64,000 nucleotides of DNA. It comes from Carcharhinus longimanus (lineage: Eukaryota). Below the pieces are notes generated by a model that searched no databases, had not been told where the DNA came from, and saw nothing but the letters and a program-made list of their open reading frames with translations. The stretch spans positions 111,963,290 to 112,027,289 of the forward strand of contig JASCQW010000162.1 in NCBI GenBank assembly GCA_030264375.1. The letters are read 5' to 3'. Shown in pieces: positions 2,091-63,154 of the stretch (positions are counted from its first letter, which is position 1; each line of letters opens with the position of its first letter). The position numbers and the translations under genes are program-made.

Positions 2091-2464
2091 TTAGAAATTG
2101 GGTGCATCACAATATAAATCCTCTTAGCCCTGTCCTAAACCATCAGATCTTCTGGGTGAGCCAAAAAGGCAGATTAAAAACCCAGGCCAATCTGGGAAAG
2201 AATCCAGCAAATTCCTCTTCAACCCTTCTAGACAATTAAAGTTTGTGCATCCAATTACATTGTCTCAGGATTCCTTGCAGCACCTAACCCTTGTGATCTC
2301 TGCCACAGCCAGAAACAAGTCCAGCTCTCACTTAAGTGACGGAAGTCTACTATTCTCTGGGAAAAGATCCACTTCCTACTGTCAATTTTCCAGGTGTTTA
2401 GATCACCAACAACCTGTCCTGGTCCCTCCATGCCGCTGCTGTAGTTAAGAAAGCCAATCAACAC

Positions 2465-3016
2465 CTCTACTTTCTCAGGAAACTAAGGAAATTCGGCATG
2501 TCCACTATGATTCTCACCCATTCTTACAGATGCACTATAGAAAGCATCCCTTCCAGATGTGCAGCTTGGCATGGCTCCTGCTCTGACCAAGACCGCAAGA
2601 AACTGCAAGCCCAGTCAATCACGCAAACCAACCTCCCATCCATTGACTCTGTCTACACTTCCCGCTGCCTTGGGAAAGCAGCCAGCATAATCAAGGACCT
2701 CACAAACCCTTGATATACTCTCTCCCACCTTCTTCCGGTGGGAAAAAGATACAAAGTCTGAAAACAATACCAACAGATTCGAACAGTTTCTTCCCTGCTG
2801 TCATCAGACATTTGAATGGTCCTATCATATATTAAGCTGATCTTTCTCTTCACCCTACCTGTAACTGCAACACTATATTTTGCACTCTATCGTTTCCTTC
2901 TCCCCTATTTACTCTGTGAATGGTATGTTTTGCCTGTATAGCACGCAAGAAACAATATTTTTCACTGCATCCCAATACAGGTGAGAGTAATAAATCAAAT
3001 CAAATCAACCAAATCA
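2465..3016 (+). mobile_element. Rex1/Babar-type LINE 3' fragment
   Basis: Encodes LRKLRKFGMSTMILTHSYRCTIESI...AWHGSCS..DRKKLQ, typical of the Rex1 RT C-terminus. Ends in AATAAA(TCAAA)n. Confidence 0.75.
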
Positions 3017-27509: not shown

Positions 27510-27603
27510 CTTTTAAATAAAATCAAATAAAAGCTCAGCAACAAACCACTACCACCTACAGAGCCAGCTCCACCATCGCAAATGCCTTCCCTTGAATACT
27601 TAC

Positions 27604-27688
27604 TATTTTCTTCCACTTCATTCTTCGGTTTTGGTACCAAGTTTTCACCTGAAGTTGACTAAGGCCCAAAGATTCCGCTAGGTCTATC
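27604..27688 (-). CDS. BARX1: BARX1 coding exon 3: (R)[28 protein letters not shown], homeodomain helix 2/3
   Basis: Acceptor TACAG| at 27689 and donor ATA|GTAAGT at 27603. 85 nt. Bar-class TWYQNRR signature (Y at homeodomain position 49). Confidence 0.97.
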
Positions 27689-28440
27689 CTGTATTTAAAA
27701 ATAGAAGTAAATATATTTGGGCAAATCAGAATAGAATGCATTTTAAATCGCTTTGGCCCCGTTAGTAAATGCGCGCGTCCTTGTCACAATAATTTCACTT
27801 GCTGGATGGTCTTTGTAAATGAACGCTGTGCTTTGGGAATGATATACCAAAGTCGCTGGTGCAGCGAAAACTAATACATTGGGTTGCCTGTTCTAACTTC
27901 TCCTCTCCCCTCCGATTACTACCAGTACTAAACCCGAAGGAAATATTCCAAATACACAAATCGCTCTCATTCGCTATTGGAACTGATCTGCACGTTTAGA
28001 TTGTGGGGAGAATATTTATTGGGAACATCACGGATATCTGGATGAAATGGTGGTGCGTGCCACATTGGATCCTCATATCTGTATATGTTTCAGCTGATTT
28101 GGCATGAATGAGTTTGTGTATTCTTGTTTCATTCCTACGTTTTGTTGTTGTCTCACAATCCCCGTACTGTTCATTGGTAGGGTCAAAGCTATCTAACTGA
28201 TTTTAGGAACGGGGATTTTGCCAATCGGTTTCAACTGAAAACGGCAAGTTTTAACGCAATGAACAGTTAAAGCATTGCCCGCAATTAAATATTTAAAGTA
28301 ATATCAAATGAGATGTTGTAGAGCAGCAGAATGCAAACCAGCGTTCTCTGTTGAGTTATATCCGTCTGTACAAAATGCCATGTTATGCTTTCTAAAATGT
28401 ACTTACTATTTTTTAAAATAGTGTCAATATTCAAAGTTAC

Positions 28441-28735
28441 CTGTCTGGCGTTGAGAGATATTTCTGCTTTTCAAATCGTTTCTCGAGTCCCATTAGTTGG
28501 AGTTCAGTGAAGACCGTTCGGCTCCTCCTGCCTTTTTTTGCCTTGCTCCCCGGTTCGGGACCTTGTTCGAGCTTCGAGCGTAGGTGCAGGTCCAGGGGAA
28601 GGTGCGGGCCTCCGGGCCCGGTAGGCAGGCTCGATCCTCCGGATACCAACGCTGAGCCCAGTGGAGCGGCAAGACTACATGAAATCGGACCCAGCGGGAA
28701 CTTAAAAACTCCGGTGTGATCTGATTTCAGGCCAG
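28441..28735 (-). CDS. BARX1: BARX1 coding exon 2: (A)[20 protein letters not shown]...[34 protein letters not shown](R), N-terminal part of the homeodomain
   Basis: Acceptor TTGCAG| at 28736 and donor AG|GTAACT at 28440. 295 nt keeps frame (phase 1 to phase 2). Homeodomain sequence is BARX1-type. Confidence 0.97.
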
Positions 28736-30159
28736 CTGCAAGCACATCGGGCACAAATGTTACTGCCAATATTGGAGTGAACTCAAAACTTGTACTTAAG
28801 TACACTCCAATTAAAGCTGCCTTCGCCTACACAAGGAAGAACTGCGCGGTACACTTACAAAATGATACATGTCAGGGAATTGTTAAAATACATTTTCAGT
28901 GTACCATTTTGTTGCACGTAACTCGATATTATTTAAGTTTATAGATGAACAGCTATGAAGCTATCAGTTTCCGCTATGAAGATTGCCTCGTACTGTCACG
29001 ATCGTAAGAAAAAAATAGGTTTTTAAAAATCCAGTATCTCACACATATTCAACTTTGTTTTTAGCAAAAATAATATCTCGCATTTCTTAATGCAGCTAAT
29101 TGTTTGCTGGTAATTTACAAAACAAGCATTTCAAAAAAGTATCACGCATCCTTTTTAAGAAATTTAGTCGTTCGCCTTCCTTTAGAGCACCCAGCCTAAT
29201 TTCATTTAGCAACAAGTTATAAATACCATCCATTTCAGTGGGACTGCAAAGTTGTCTTTTACCCGTCTGTTGTTTTGAAGGAAACGGGAAATTATTCAAT
29301 TTACCACACCGTTCACTAATGTCTTTTGCACAACGTGCAATGGCATTACTCCGCATCTGAATTGCAATCTTCGATTGTGACCTTTCTGTTTCGCGAAATA
29401 AGTTTTACTGTTTTAAATAAGGATTGATTTTGGAGTGTTAAACTTTGGTGCAATAGGGATCATTTATGTACGTGTGCGTGTGTGAGAGAGAGAGTTGGGA
29501 GGGATGAGATTGCCCCTTTCAAAATAAATGCTACGATTATACTGGGGTTTTGGGGTTAGAATACTTCTAAACCATACGTTTCCGACCTGGGCACACACTG
29601 TTTATTCTAGGAATAATATGGTTGGGGGTCCCAGGATAATATTACGAGAAAATTAAACGCCGGATATATTTTTGTTAGATGACAGATATCCTACGAAAAA
29701 AAATATGCAACAATTATTGTAATAATGTTAAACTCAGCTTGCAGTTTTTCTTCACTGCTGCACGCTTTTCTTAGGCCTTGTCAAAAATATTTGCAGTGCT
29801 CAACTATCTCATTGCATTGCCCAACTATCTTATTGCATTGCCTCGGTTTATTTTGTTCTCTCTTTCGATTTATGAGATTGTTGTCTTCCGGACAATTTCA
29901 TTCTATGTTATTTGCTGCATATTACAAGCTACCTACGAGCTAAAGCCAGCATGGATTGTCGGCGTGGACGCTGGAGTGGGAATTCTGTCTGTGAAAATGC
30001 CCAACTGGCCACGGACTGCACACTGTGGAAAATGCTGCTCATCTGTTACAAAAGGGAAACATTCCGAGGGAGCAGATTCCGAGTGATTTTGGAGAGCACC
30101 CTTTGAATAATGTAACCCACATCGAGGAAGCATAGCGTTTAGGAAAGCTTTCCACCTAC

Positions 30160-31700: not shown

Positions 31701-33767
31701 CAGTCATACAGGACACGTCTCGAGGTTGGAAACGTAGCTTGCTGTACAGAGAAACTCTCTCTCTCCTTTCACTGTAGTCTGTGGCAACTTCTAGTCCTAG
31801 TTTGAAGTGTAAAGATAAAAGATGCAAACTGGTACCGTCCAGTTAGGCAAATATTTTCTAACCGTCCCAATCCCGACAAACTTAACCCCTAGATCGGCAG
31901 AAGCAGAGATGTCAAATCTCACGTAGATATATATATATACACACAGATATACCTCTCACCCCACAAAATACTTTTCCCCACATTATGCCAGGCTCGGTAT
32001 TACTTCCTGGCCATTGGTAAAAAAGAGTGGACTATTCATTTCAAAATGTGGCTTTTCGACACTGTTGTCTCTTTCGTCCATTTTCTCCAATAACAGACAG
32101 TTTGCTATTCTCTGACAAACATGCCAACAATTTCGTTTTACACTTACAGCGGGCAAGGATGGAACAATCTTTCGCCTTACTTTAAAATGTGTGTTGGGGA
32201 GTGGGGGTGGGGGGGGAGGGTGGAATTCGCTTCGCACTGTTGTTGGTCTGGCTTTTCCAATATCATTTGTATTTGTCAGCAGTGGTCAAGGCTGCGTATC
32301 CCCCCTCCCCTCCCCTCCCCCACCCCATCCCCCACTCAGCATCAATTCACGGATAAGTCCATTTCTAAAGAAAGGCACATAAAATATATATTGCCACTTA
32401 TCTCAGTCTCATTTCTATTCTACGAAATGGAAATCGACCACAGCTAATTCCTCCTGACAATATGTTACACACATCACAATAACAGCAGAAATATCTGTTC
32501 ACGGTGAGAGTGGGGAATCCGGGATGGCGAATTGCCTCCCCAGGATAGCTTCCATCTATAAGACTTCATCTAATGAGGTTTCACTGTCATCATAACGATG
32601 CAGTTTTACAGCGGGCTGTTTGATCCAATTATTGAATGGGGAAGCGCAAGATTGGGAGGTGTGGTTAAACCCGTTTGCTTCTCAATATGATACTTCCTGT
32701 TCCATCCCACATAACACAATAAGGGAAAAATTGCTTTATTAAAATTATCCGAGGGATCCCCTATTGCTATAATGTGTTAGATATATCCGTTTACTGTGCA
32801 ATTGAATGTGTTTTCCGTTCTTTTTTTGAAAAGTTCCTTTGCAATCATGCCACCCATGTTTCCCGTTCGCCAACAAAAGCGGAATGAATGATCGAAAACT
32901 GCCAGTGACAGGCATGCTACACATTCACCAAACCCTCATTACATAGAGTGGAACTCCACCCGCACCCCAGCCTACAGTTGAGATCTGAAAAGCTACCGAA
33001 GTATGTGTTTTTTTTCAGTGGCAATTGTTAAAGTTTTTCTAAATCGCACCCCGCGACACATTGAAATACCGTTTGTGTGTGGAATAAGTATCTGAATTGT
33101 AACCGGCCCCTCAGCTCGATGAAGCATAAACTGTATGAGATGTTTTAATTTCGAAGTTTCTAATGCCTGGGCAATTCTAATGAGATTACACCACGCAATG
33201 TTTGGGAGTTCAAGGAGAGCGTTAAATAAATTAACTAGAGGGGGCCCTCCACACATCCCGTGTAGAACATTTTCTCTCATTTTAAACTGAAATGTTAAGG
33301 CTCCAGGACATTACATAAAATGCATTTTGTAAATTTAAGTGTCAGGATAATGTATTGCTCCTGTAACCTAATTAGGTCACCTGACACATTGGCAACCTTT
33401 GATTAATGCATTGTTTACTTCAGCTTTGATTAAATCAGTGCAAGTCAGTCTATCGCTGGTCCACGTAGACACAGGGAGACTCCGCTTAGACAGCGACCCA
33501 AGCCGGGAATCGAACCCGGTGTCCCTGGCGCTGTGAGGCAGCAGTGCTGACCACTGTACCGCCGGTGTTAGTCCGAACTTTTCGCCTTATTATTCCCTCA
33601 AATCAAACCTTTACATTAAAAAATGAGTATTTGACACGTCTGCATTTTGTTACAGTCACACAGGTAAATATTAACTATTTCACTCAGGTGAAGGAAGTTT
33701 TACGTTTATAACATTAAGGACAGTGTGTAAGTTTGAATACTGCTCCACATGAATTATATGCCATTTA

Positions 33768-45664: not shown

Positions 45665-46803
45665 AGTGATCGCATTACATAAACAAAAATGTTAGGTGTA
45701 AGGACAGAAAAACGGAAATATGATACAAGACAGAGTTGATATAAGATACAGCGAAGATAAAGAATTGATTCCATTCTTGTTGCCGTTGTAAAACAACAGC
45801 TATTAATTGCAATACCACTGACTCTTTGCGTCCTTGCTAAGCCTTCCGTGATCCAATGTGGAAGTCGGATTTGTCATTGCAGTCCAATCTTTAGCTGTTC
45901 AATTGATTAACCTGTAAATTCAGTGTTTGATCATTTCGCTCATTTAGTTGGTTACTTTTGCACAACCTTCTACAAATGAGTTGTGCCTTTCAACATTTTG
46001 GTAAAAAAATTAAGACAGGTCTAAAGTTTCTGGAGTAAGTGGCGCATTTTTTCACTTCCAAAGAATATTTTAGTTATGAATAACCAATTTTCTTTTTAAA
46101 AAAAACCTTTATCTTTCGGATATAACCAGTGCTGAAATTTCTAGTTTACAAAAATGCGCACCGACTGTCCTGATTCACAGTATTACCGTTAATAACTAAA
46201 CATCCGAACGTTTGAGATTCAGAAGGGGTTCGAGTCGTAAACCTGCTGAAGCCACTATCTCAAAGGAGACCATTGCCGTGTGTTTTACCAGTATCATAAA
46301 TGTGTGTTTTTAATTGTGTCCTGTAAGCATCTGCACGGGTTTCAGCAATGCTTCAGGTAATTGTGACTTAGATCAGGTAACGCCATAAGATTCCTCAAAG
46401 AATGTGGGAAGCCGGTTTCAGCAAACTAGTTGTGTTGCCATCAGTTATTTATCAGGTGCTATTTAGAAGGATGCAGCCAAATTAAAAATCGAATGAGTTT
46501 TCCCTGTAGTTAATATTTTAGGACCAGGAGGTGGAAGCAATGCTGTATCAGAGATGCGGGGGGAATGCGAAATGTACAACAGAATCTGAAGTGTGAAGAA
46601 GTATTCAAGAAATTTAAGTGGACTTTGAGGGGTTACCAAGTTATTCCGTGACTGCGCCACAATTGAAAATGTACGACAGACCCGTTTGACTTTAGATGGC
46701 TGGTATTTAAGTCCAGTTTGTCCTCCCATCCAGTAACCTTTTTAGGACTGAACGTCCACTGCTACCCTCGTGTTTACCAAATGGAAACCTGTAACACTAA
46801 AAA

Positions 46804-46940
46804 ATGCTTTGACGAAGGGTCATTTGGACTCGAAACGTCAGTTCTTTTCTCTGCTTACAGATGCTACCAGACCTGCTGAGATTTTCCAACGTTTTCTCTT
46901 TTGGTTTCGGATTCCAGCGTCTGCAATAGTTTGCTTTTAT
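46804..46940 (+). mobile_element. Penelope-type pLTR fragment with a hammerhead-like motif
   Basis: TTGACGA-A-GGGTC-ATTTG-GACTC-GAAA-CGTC, then ACAGATGCTACCAGACCTGCTGAGATTTTCC. Confidence 0.65.
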
Positions 46941-48459: not shown

Positions 48460-48965
48460 GCATTTTCAATCCTATCCCTGAGGTTTGGGCACATAATCCA
48501 AGATAACACTTGATTTCAGTACTGAGAGAATGCTGTACTGTCAGAGGTGCACCTGAGGAAGGAATAGCATTCCGAAAGTTCGTGATTCCAAATAAACCTG
48601 CTGGGCTTTAACCTGGTGTTGTGAGACTTCTTGTTGTCAAAGGTGCATTTTGGATCAGACATTGAACTGTCCTTCAGGTGAGTGCAAAAGGTGAGATAAT
48701 ACTTTTTGAGGAAGAGTAGAAGAATTCTTCCAAACTCTTTGCCAACAATTATCCTTCACCCAACATTGCAATAACAGATAATCTGCTCTTTTATCTCATT
48801 GAAGTTTGTGGGACATTGCTGTGTATAAATTAGCTGTAACGATGCATTCTCTACAACAGTAACAGCATTTCAAAAGTACTTCAGTGGCTTGGAAGCACTT
48901 TACAACATCATTAGGATAAAAATAGGACTGTACAATGGTACAACTGAAAGCACTTTCTTTCTTGT
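48460..48965 (+). mobile_element. Deu-domain SINE (SacSINE1/AmnSINE1-like), old, with a nested Penelope-derived insert
   Basis: Recognisable Deu blocks CAGTACTGAGAGAATGCTGTACTGTCAGAGGTGC, TTTGTGGGACATTGCTGTGTATAAATTAGCTG and TTCAAAAGTACTTCAGTGGCT, with a (CTTT)n tail. Confidence 0.7.
48552..48634 (+). mobile_element. Short Penelope-derived insert carrying a minimal hammerhead ribozyme motif
   Basis: CTGAGGA-A-GGAAT-AGC-ATTCC-GAAA. Flanking direct repeats TGTCAGAGGTGCA (48539-48551) and TGTCAAAGGTGCA (48635-48647). Confidence 0.7.
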
Positions 48966-56432: not shown

Positions 56433-56609
56433 AAAATGTGATTTAAATTGCAAACTTTGGATGATTACACAAATGGTCACCGAGAAAAAGTTAGNNNNNN
56501 NNNNNNNNNNNNNNNNNNNNNNNNNNNNNNNNNNNNNNNNNNNNNNNNNNNNNNNNNNNNNNNNNNNNNNNNNNNNNNNNNNNNNNNNNGTCTGAGGCCA
56601 GAACTCTCC

Positions 56610-56649
56610 ATTCACCTGACGAAGGGACTAACCCCGAAAGCTAGTGAGT
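56610..56649 (+). ncRNA. Minimal type I hammerhead ribozyme motif in a Penelope-derived repeat (56590-56690)
   Basis: ATTCAC-CTGACGA-A-GGG-ACTAAC-CCC-GAAA-GCT-A-GTGAGT. Intact core, stem II GGG/CCC, stem I ATTCAC/GTGAGT, palindromic AGCT at stem III. Activity untested. Confidence 0.6.
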
Positions 56650-57244
56650 CTACTATCAAATAAATCAGTTGGACTTAAACCTGGTGTTGCCTCACTAATC
56701 ACACCCAGAGCCCAACACCTCACTCCTATCTGATCTTTGATCTCTCTCACCTCCCAAATTCTATCCACTTATCTTGGAGCCTAACACTTAGGCACTTACC
56801 TTCTCCCCATACTGTCAATTTCATTGGACCTTTAAAATTACTTGGCAATTCAACTCTCCTGCACTTTGATGCTGGGTCTCAGGACAAGCTGTGCTGCCTG
56901 GATCTTGCCTCACCTGTGTTGGAAGGTTGGGCAAGACGGACATGGAATAAATTTCACATAAGGAATTGGGCAACCTGAAGCTGACTGCTACTCCAAGAAA
57001 ACGACAACCCAATTAATCCAATTCCTTTTGAACAGTGCAGTACTGAATCTAATTCCCTCACCCAGTTTGTGCATTACAGATCACCATAACCAATTGCTTA
57101 ATTTCTTCCCCTCATGTTGTCTCTGTTTCTTTTGTCAATTACCTTAAATCTGCATACTTTGCCACTGGTAACAGTCTCTACTCTTTCAAAACCCTGCAAG
57201 GTTTTGAACATTCCTCCTTTAAGCATCTCAACTGAGAACAAATT

Positions 57245-57510
57245 GCTGCCTCACGGTTCCAGGGACCTGGGTTCAATTCCATCAATTGGATCATTGTCTG
57301 TGTGGAGTCTGCATATTGTCCCCATGTCTGGGTGCTCCAGTTTCCACACACAGTCTGAAAGACATGCTGGTTAGATGCGTTGGCCATAGTAAATTCTCCA
57401 TCAATGTATCCGAACAGGCGCCAGAGCGTGGCAACTAGGGGATTTTTACAGTAACTTCATTGCAATGTTACTGGAAGGGTACTTGTGATGCTAAAAAAAA
57501 GTTTCATTCT
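57245..57510 (+). mobile_element. V-SINE variant with the alternative tail
   Basis: Head TGCTGCCTCACGGTTCCAGGGACCTGGGTTC and tail CCGAACAGGCGCCAGAGCGTGGCAACTAGGGGATTTTTACAGTAACTTCATTGC, matching 6698-6990. Confidence 0.7.
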
Positions 57511-61888: not shown

Positions 61889-62422
61889 AAGAAGTCTGAC
61901 AACACCAGGTTTAAGTCCAACCGATTTATTTGATAGTAAACAGACATCAAGTTTTTACAGAGGTGCAAGTAAGCAGGNNNNNNNNNNNNNNNNNNNNNNN
62001 NNNNNNNNNNNNNNNNNNNNNNNNNNNNNNNNNNNNNNNNNNNNNNNNNNNNNNNNNNNNNNNNNNNNNNNNNNNNNGAGAGGATCTCCAAGAAGATTGC
62101 GCATATCGACACAGACATCAAGTTTTTACAGAGATGCAAGAAAGCAGACAAGATTCGCATTCTAATCAGTAATCTGTAAACTGTCTGTGCTGTATATGCT
62201 CTGCCTGAGGCCAGAACTCTTCATTCACCTGACCAAGAGGGAACCCTTGAAAGCTTGTGAGTTTACTATCAAATAAATTGGTTGGACTTAAACCTGGTGT
62301 TGTCAGACTTCTTAATGTGTTTACCCCAATCCAACGCTGGCACCTCCACATCATGACTACTATTGACACCGCAAACTGCTGGATCCAAGTGGAGAGGATC
62401 TCCAAGAAGATTCCACATCATG
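61889..62422 (+). mobile_element. Non-autonomous Penelope derivative, partial tandem of a ~314 bp unit with an inverted 5' segment
   Basis: 14-bp direct repeat ACCACATTTACAAT at 61875-61888 and 62423-62436. GAGAGGATCTCCAAGAAGATT at 62078 and 62392. Hammerhead-like core at 62223-62262. Confidence 0.7.
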
Positions 62423-62859: not shown

Positions 62860-63154
62860 TGTAAAGTGATGGAAGTGGTGTTACCTAGCCTGTGTGTAAG
62901 GTGATTGAACAGGAGTTACCTAGCCTGTGTTTGAGGTGATTGAAGTGGTGTTACCTAGCCTATGTGTGTGAGGTGATTGAAGTGGTGTTACCTAGGCTGT
63001 GTTTAAGGTGATTGAAGGGGAATTACCTAGCCTGCATGTAAGGTGATTGAAGTGGTGTTACCTAGCCTGTGTGTGTAAGGTGATTGAAGTGGTGTTACCT
63101 AGCCTGTGTGGGTAAGTTGATTGAAGTGGTGTTACCTAGCCTGTGAGGGTAAGG
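62860..63154. repeat. Minisatellite, 35-37 bp unit (AGGTGATTGAAGTGGTGTTACCTAGCCTGTGTGT-like), at least 8 copies, running into a gap
   Basis: TTACCTAG at 62881, 62916, 62951, 62988, 63023, 63058, 63095 and 63132. Confidence 0.92.

Follow-up and report, generated by a model that had tools for sequence, protein, structure and literature searches.

An intact minimal hammerhead motif in a probable Penelope-like retrotransposon remnant of a shark genome

The window is the whole 64-kb stretch of shark DNA that was analyzed. Forty bases on its + strand, 56610-56649, form an intact minimal type I hammerhead motif by direct reading. The 5′ strand of stem I lies at 56610-56615 and was identified by sequence reading, descriptor, and folding; stem I has 6 bp, including one G·U pair. 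The CUGANGA box (C3-A9) reads CUGACGA at 56616-56622 and was found by sequence reading and descriptor. It is followed by an unpaired A at 56623, which is typical of minimal hammerheads; the extra A occurred in 127 of 130 anchored copies. Stem II and its loop occupy 56624-56635, with three G-C pairs between 56624-56626 and 56633-56635. The fourth stem II pair is an A·C mismatch in this copy and G-C in sister lineages. Sequence reading placed the GAAA box at 56636-56639. The palindrome AGCU, which can form stem III only as a dimer, is at 56639-56642 (sequence reading and copy alignment). The UH site, with H = A, is at 56643, and the 3′ strand of stem I is read at 56644-56649, where it is also a consensus 5′ splice donor hexamer. 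According to established hammerhead numbering, the predicted cut falls between 56643 and 56644. The original prediction had read the same boxes, stems, and UH site from these letters, and the descriptor matched at the same place. Its assignment to type I minimal hammerheads with a palindromic stem III, the kind found in Penelope-like elements (PLEs), also held.

The rarity of the motif was investigated by shuffling and simulation. The core pattern occurred once in the window, whereas 100 shuffles averaged 0.03 matches, with 3 of the shuffles containing one. Over 60 Markov simulations, the two-stem descriptor averaged 0.017 matches per 64 kb, never with a 6-bp stem I. The motif at 56610-56649 is not due to chance. 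Its fold stability was ordinary, with a z-score of -1.5. An Rfam scan, the check that the original prediction had named, returned no hammerhead match in the window at E up to 1, likely because stem III is missing.

Two other copies of the same element carry hammerheads in the window, and all three lie on the + strand. The copy at 48550-48621 belongs to an older lineage and has an exact core (C3 at 48553), a 3-bp stem I, and AGUU in place of AGCU, as found by the descriptor. The sister copy at 62078-62411 is an internally deleted unit with a period of 314 nt, and its hammerhead has C3 at 62229. Its order is ORF start, 3′ UTR end, hammerhead, tail, and ATG at 62353. G8 is changed to C in this copy, and an inverted piece accompanies the unit at 61900-61941. 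An unrelated repeat family contributes a hammerhead-like motif at 46799-46870 (+). It has the palindrome ACGU, not AGCU, and C3 is changed to U at 46809 (descriptor); its 12-base centre has six further two-mismatch matches in the window. The other descriptor motifs were thus damaged (62229 and 46809) or had a short stem I (48553), and the motif at 56610-56649 is the best-preserved copy in the window, as had been proposed.

Short deleted units, in which the first ~100-190 nt of the ORF are joined to the 3′ UTR end, were also seen at L082:1298-1713 and at loci L058, L052, and L074, with joints that vary among copies. L082 is a head-to-tail pair with a motif spacing of 304 nt. Such units may mark the origin of non-autonomous elements that resemble retrozymes.

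The only host gene found in the window was a homeobox gene on the - strand, about 28 kb away from the motif, with two exons at 27559-28826. The best solved-structure match of these exons was the BarH-like 1 homeodomain (2dmt_A, E 2.2e-19). The search covered 120 of 231 open frames of at least 62 aa and would miss short exons. The copy is likely intergenic because the only host gene found is this minus-strand BarH-like 1 gene at 27.5-28.8 kb. G-rich/C-rich inverted arms lie at 32189-32348, in a GC-rich region upstream of the homeobox exons, and gave spurious miRNA matches far below the Rfam cut-offs. An open frame at 2402-2710 (+) matched Pfam ALKBH8_N (E 8.9e-13), a domain that often marks the end of L2/CR1-type LINE ORF2 remnants. 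The repeat at 57240-57510 is presumably a tRNA-derived SINE remnant, which it resembles. A 35-bp minisatellite of eight copies lies at 62860-63145, beside a 202-N gap.

The hammerhead at 56610-56649 is contained in a PLE pseudo-LTR remnant of the young lineage at 56590-56689 (+), of which 100 bases are visible. The 5′ end of the remnant is lost in an assembly gap. The remnant stops at unit position 100, 13-16 nt before the point where family copies most often end, and is without the ~35-nt tail. The 100-mer had 1439 candidates in its own genome (2.68 Gb) at first look. Forty scored copies, besides the remnant itself, were 95-99% identical over the 100-mer. The 30-base core occurred exactly 238 times genome-wide, 119 times per strand. 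An AATAAA at 56659-56664 (+), whose columns were 95-100% conserved over 132 copies, is likely the polyadenylation signal of the element, judging from its sequence.

A total of 48 young-family loci were examined, and 43 of them held the hammerhead motif. The 3′ ends of these 43 loci fell at unit position 113-116 in 21 and at 150-151 in 8, two clusters ~35 nt apart. Two ends about one tail apart recall the tail described in the accessible text of PMC8557442 and PMC11167929. An inverted piece was present upstream in 17 of the 43 loci and in 17 of 30 in a second sample. In most cases the inverted piece is tailed (151) while the forward one stops at 113-116, or the two are exchanged (L005, L006, L014, L024, and others), a pattern known from PLE insertions. 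Inverted pieces with an optional 30-40-bp tail are given as PLE signatures in the same two sources, as far as their accessible text goes. Partial tandems, inverted 5′-truncated pieces, and an optional tail, all PLE traits, were present across the fetched loci.

The assembly gap of 95 N at 56495-56589 ends 20 bases before stem I. It had been suggested that tandem copies could be hidden there, and the family-wide counts argued against this. Gaps at the 5′ end were routine, at 15 of the 43 young-family loci and at 15 of 30 in the second sample. A second same-strand motif was found at only 2 of the 43 (3-kb locus) and at 1 of the 30, with a spacing that ranged from 227 nt, in an older lineage, to about 1.4 kb; the inverted piece was far more frequent, as counted above. 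Among the gaps in the fetched loci, 81 of 130 were exactly 100 N and other sizes under 100 numbered 8; the 95 N may be a measured size because most gaps are exactly 100 N. If 95 is a size estimate, it is smaller than the measured head-to-tail spacing of 304 nt. Tandem Repeats Finder reported nothing at the 56610-56649 locus. Truncated or inverted pieces of the element are more likely in the gap than a tandem array.

The architecture of the parent element is a composite of multiple loci and more than one lineage; the roughly 180 loci fetched did not include an intact, full-length young-lineage element. In relatives, the ORF stop lies 218 nt before C3 and the next ATG 124 nt after C3. The family order is ORF stop, 218 nt, hammerhead, AATAAA, first element end, ~35-nt tail, and ATG. 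The ORF end is joined to the motif in L034, and the motif precedes the ATG in L086 and L083. Pfam RVT_1 was matched in 3 of 3 ORF pieces at E 1.9e-6 to 6.9e-4, all below the curated cut-off. DKG and YIDD-type motifs were present in the ORF. At E 1e-50 or better the ORF had 826 homologues, among which shark proteins led the named entries, and GIY-YIG (PF01541) was found on 12 of the 120 homologues listed. A C-x4-C-x2-C linker occurs in L042, L115, L121, and L136 before an endonuclease-like stretch, which follows the reverse transcriptase (RT) and reads VVYLI..WYIGET. A Pfam scan of one such stretch gave no GIY-YIG match.

A CX2-5CxxC linker between the RT and the endonuclease marks Neptune and Nematis in the accessible part of PMC8557442. 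Neptune is the vertebrate clade of the two, according to the available text of bioRxiv 10.64898/2026.07.22.740005. From its sequence, the parent is a Penelope-like retrotransposon, likely of the Neptune clade. The original prediction had named both PLEs and non-LTR retrozymes as carriers of such motifs; a coding PLE pseudo-LTR, with an RT ORF joined to the motif, was borne out, and a tandem non-LTR retrozyme was not. Minimal hammerheads of PLEs are an already described kind (Cervera and De la Pena 2014, PMC4209133, accessible portion). The literature search, which was directed at papers, found no description of a shark Penelope-like hammerhead. The family may well be catalogued in Repbase or Dfam, and it may be listed in the supplements of bioRxiv 10.64898/2026.07.22.740005. 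Further prior literature is PMC6765202 and PMC6155905, in their accessible parts.

The conservation of the fold was investigated in 132 gap-free copies, of which 130 could be anchored. Core positions were kept in 119-130 of the 130 copies, except G8 (112) and G12 (108). These two are the most mutated core positions; they lie in CpG and decay to A. H17 was U in 66, A in 52, C in 8, and G in 4. In the palindrome (15.2-16.2), 126 of 130 copies kept the G and 122 the C. The first stem II pair (10.1-11.1) was G-C in 95 and G·U in 26. The second was G-C in 83, A-U in 35, and unpaired or missing in 9; the third was G-C in 79, A-U in 25, and G·U in 18; the fourth was G-C in 68 and A·C in 34. Stem II is weaker in the young lineage, to which the 56610-56649 copy belongs, than in the sister lineages. 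In older lineages, stem I is reduced to its inner 3-4 pairs.

The covariation alignment contained 93 sequences, namely 92 of the 130 copies and the 56610-56649 copy; the other 38 copies, length variants and some near-duplicates, were dropped by hand. In this alignment, 85% of cells pair, and the covariation score was reached by 0 of 500 shuffles; the counts reflect a small number of lineage events, each repeated in many related copies. None of the 11 core columns carried a lineage variant, as opposed to 28 of the 90 columns outside the core (p 0.03, with 6 misaligned columns excluded). The 3′ terminal flank had 5 variant columns of 41 (p 0.57), and the core was not better conserved than this flank. 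The expected conservation of the core boxes over flanking bases thus stood against the stems and the 5′ flank, but not against the 3′ flank. The G-C/A-U swaps in stem II and the lack of lineage variants at the 11 core positions indicate, as far as aligned copies can, that the ribozyme fold was under selection in master elements.

The copy at 56610-56649 had been suggested as one that may self-cleave, and its activity was evaluated by folding and by comparison of copies. A fully intact motif was found in 13 of 22 copies chosen by upstream sequence alone and in 5 of 30 RT-chosen loci. Intact motifs are therefore common among young copies. The active dimer, at -17.9 kcal/mol, was less stable than a pair of monomers (-19.8) and than a pairing that is not catalytic (-21.4); these values leave out magnesium, tertiary contacts, and proteins. 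Stems I and II form in the local context with a predicted pair probability of 0.6-0.9. According to the accessible text of PMC4209133, the monomer of a minimal hammerhead is inactive and the dimer weak. In the anole element, the ribozyme needs the element's protein for cleavage, and the template is mainly uncut RNA (PMC11167929, as far as available). Among frog dimers, 1 of 9 was active (bioRxiv 10.64898/2026.07.22.740005, available text). The lone copy at 56610-56649, which has no visible tandem partner, would probably not cut RNA in place.

Among 30 copies picked by sequence downstream of the cut, 24 cross the cut site by at least 8 nt and therefore came from uncut RNA. Fifteen of the 30 have a 5′ end clear of any gap; of these, 11 cross the cut by at least 10 nt, 1 has its end at the cut site, and 3 more end within 4 nt. 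Two of the ends near the cut site can be explained by microhomology. The 4 of 15 ends near the site (post hoc p 0.04) give a weak hint that some RNA was cut in vivo. As evidence for in vivo cleavage the 5′ ends were rejected, with 1 of 15 at the site and two explainable by microhomology.

Three other explanations of the locus were considered. A non-LTR retrozyme would consist of tandem short non-coding hammerhead units, collapsed here into the gap, which yield circular RNA by dimer cleavage. The position of the copy next to the gap, the short deleted units in L082 (304 nt apart) and at 62078 (314 nt), and the reported retrozymes of Chondrichthyes, averaging 363 bp, are all in keeping with it. 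However, no tandem repeat was seen at the locus, gaps at the 5′ end are routine in the family, second same-strand motifs are rare, and 95 N, if a size estimate, is too small for a 304-nt unit. Neither flank matches the element as a collapsed array would need, and none of the fetched loci matched the right flank. Retrozymes are also defined as non-coding, whereas the family here is joined to an RT ORF. This explanation is considered very unlikely. Activity in place is a still more doubtful proposal. Host read-through of the + strand would pair the 56616 core with the 62229 copy, or with RNA of another locus, and cut. The shared strand of the three copies, the predicted local formation of stems I and II, and the 62229 copy itself, with a dead core and an intact UH site 5.6 kb downstream, would suit this arrangement, and the stem I strands and palindromes of the two copies are compatible. 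The mixed dimer, however, is predicted at -12.8 kcal/mol against -18.8 for two monomers, the only host gene found in the frames scanned lies about 28 kb off on the opposite strand, and intact cores are common among young copies.

The last explanation, a chance arrangement in a repeat with no ribozyme history, can be set aside with near certainty. The Rfam scan without a match, the fold z-score, and a 3′ flank conserved as much as the core agree with it. The chance rate is only 0.02-0.03 per window, however, and compensatory changes in stem II, together with avoidance of G at H17, point the other way. The motif also lies in the pseudo-LTR, the place where PLE hammerheads are reported in the accessible part of PMC4209133.

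The locus is best explained, with high probability, as an intact minimal hammerhead in a truncated PLE end-piece, the lone copy being probably an inactive passenger. The role given here to cleavage in the PLE life cycle is taken from the literature by analogy. In full elements, tandem or read-through transcripts would bring together two motifs that pair through the AGCU palindrome, and each core of the dimer would cut the UH site of its partner. The element's own protein probably aids cleavage, and a long precursor RNA would be trimmed. New insertions would be copied mostly from uncut RNA, beginning at the element end or at the tail. Reverse transcription would then halt early and leave scattered end-pieces of 50-400 bp, such as 56590-56689. 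Once inserted, the motif would decay neutrally, first at the CpG positions G8 and G12. The copy at 56610-56649 would be intact because it is young, not through host retention. A described motif is thereby extended to a shark PLE family, which carries little weight on its own. The young lineage, with its 238 exact cores, and the natural stem II variants could serve as a test set for PLE hammerhead function.

A further reading concerns the cut site. The six bases after the predicted cut are GUGAGU, a perfect consensus splice donor. The donor hexamer was found in 55 of 132 copies, all of the young lineage, and is weak or absent in older lineages. At 73 nt beyond the cut there is a branch-like CUUAC, a pyrimidine run, and CAG, followed by the ATG of the ORF; this acceptor-like stretch coincides with the tail and is missing from the 56610-56649 copy. 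The GU of the donor is forced by stem I pairing. If the scissile bond of the young-lineage hammerhead doubled as a 5′ splice site, stem I and U1 snRNA would compete for one strand, and the outcome would switch between a spliced mRNA and an RNA that is cut by the ribozyme or serves as template. Short introns in the 5′ UTR are a known PLE feature, and the intron of Drosophila virilis ends at helix I (PMC4209133 and PMC8557442, accessible parts). The candidate introns here are one of 75 nt that ends 9 bases before stem I, whose donor is present only in the young lineage, and one of 73 nt that starts at the cut site. Contigs of four presumed RNA runs, from four other organisms, were compared with L086, and family sequence was present. 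Among the 15 joints listed, with 10 more outside the listing, none matches either candidate; as L086 is without the 75-nt donor and contigs drop rare forms, the comparison weighs neither for nor against them. On sequence grounds, a cut site that doubles as a donor is improbable. It would link two PLE oddities, retained introns and weak ribozymes.

The family was compared with known systems through the accessible text of each source. Non-LTR retrozymes (Li, Clavereau, and Pollet, bioRxiv 10.64898/2026.07.22.740005) share a type I hammerhead from a PLE pseudo-LTR, and short units of ~300 nt also occur in the shark family (L082). Retrozymes are tandem, with two or more complete motifs, whereas the 56610-56649 locus shows one. 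PAc, a Poseidon element of Anolis carolinensis (Frangieh et al. 2024, PMC11167929), has in common a hammerhead near the junction of pseudo-LTR and ORF, two ends about one tail apart, and insertions mostly from uncut RNA. The ORF of PAc starts inside stem II and its tail lies inside the ORF; in the shark family, the tail runs up to an ATG that lies 124 nt after C3. By clade, PAc is Penelope/Poseidon, whereas the shark ORF has a Neptune-type linker. The minimal hammerheads of PLEs (PMC4209133) are reported for Xena, Poseidon, and Neptune elements of fishes, and no shark entry was found in supplementary file 2 of that work. Helix II has 3 bp here and 4-5 in sister lineages, compared with 6-8 bp in the Schistosoma and Drosophila examples. 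The shark motif agrees with these hammerheads in its type I topology, intact boxes, and lack of stem III, and in the extra nucleotide after A9, the G10.1-C11.1 pair, and the palindromic 15.2-16.2. The pseudo-LTR place, the thousands of dispersed single copies, and the compensatory changes among lineages are likewise common to both.
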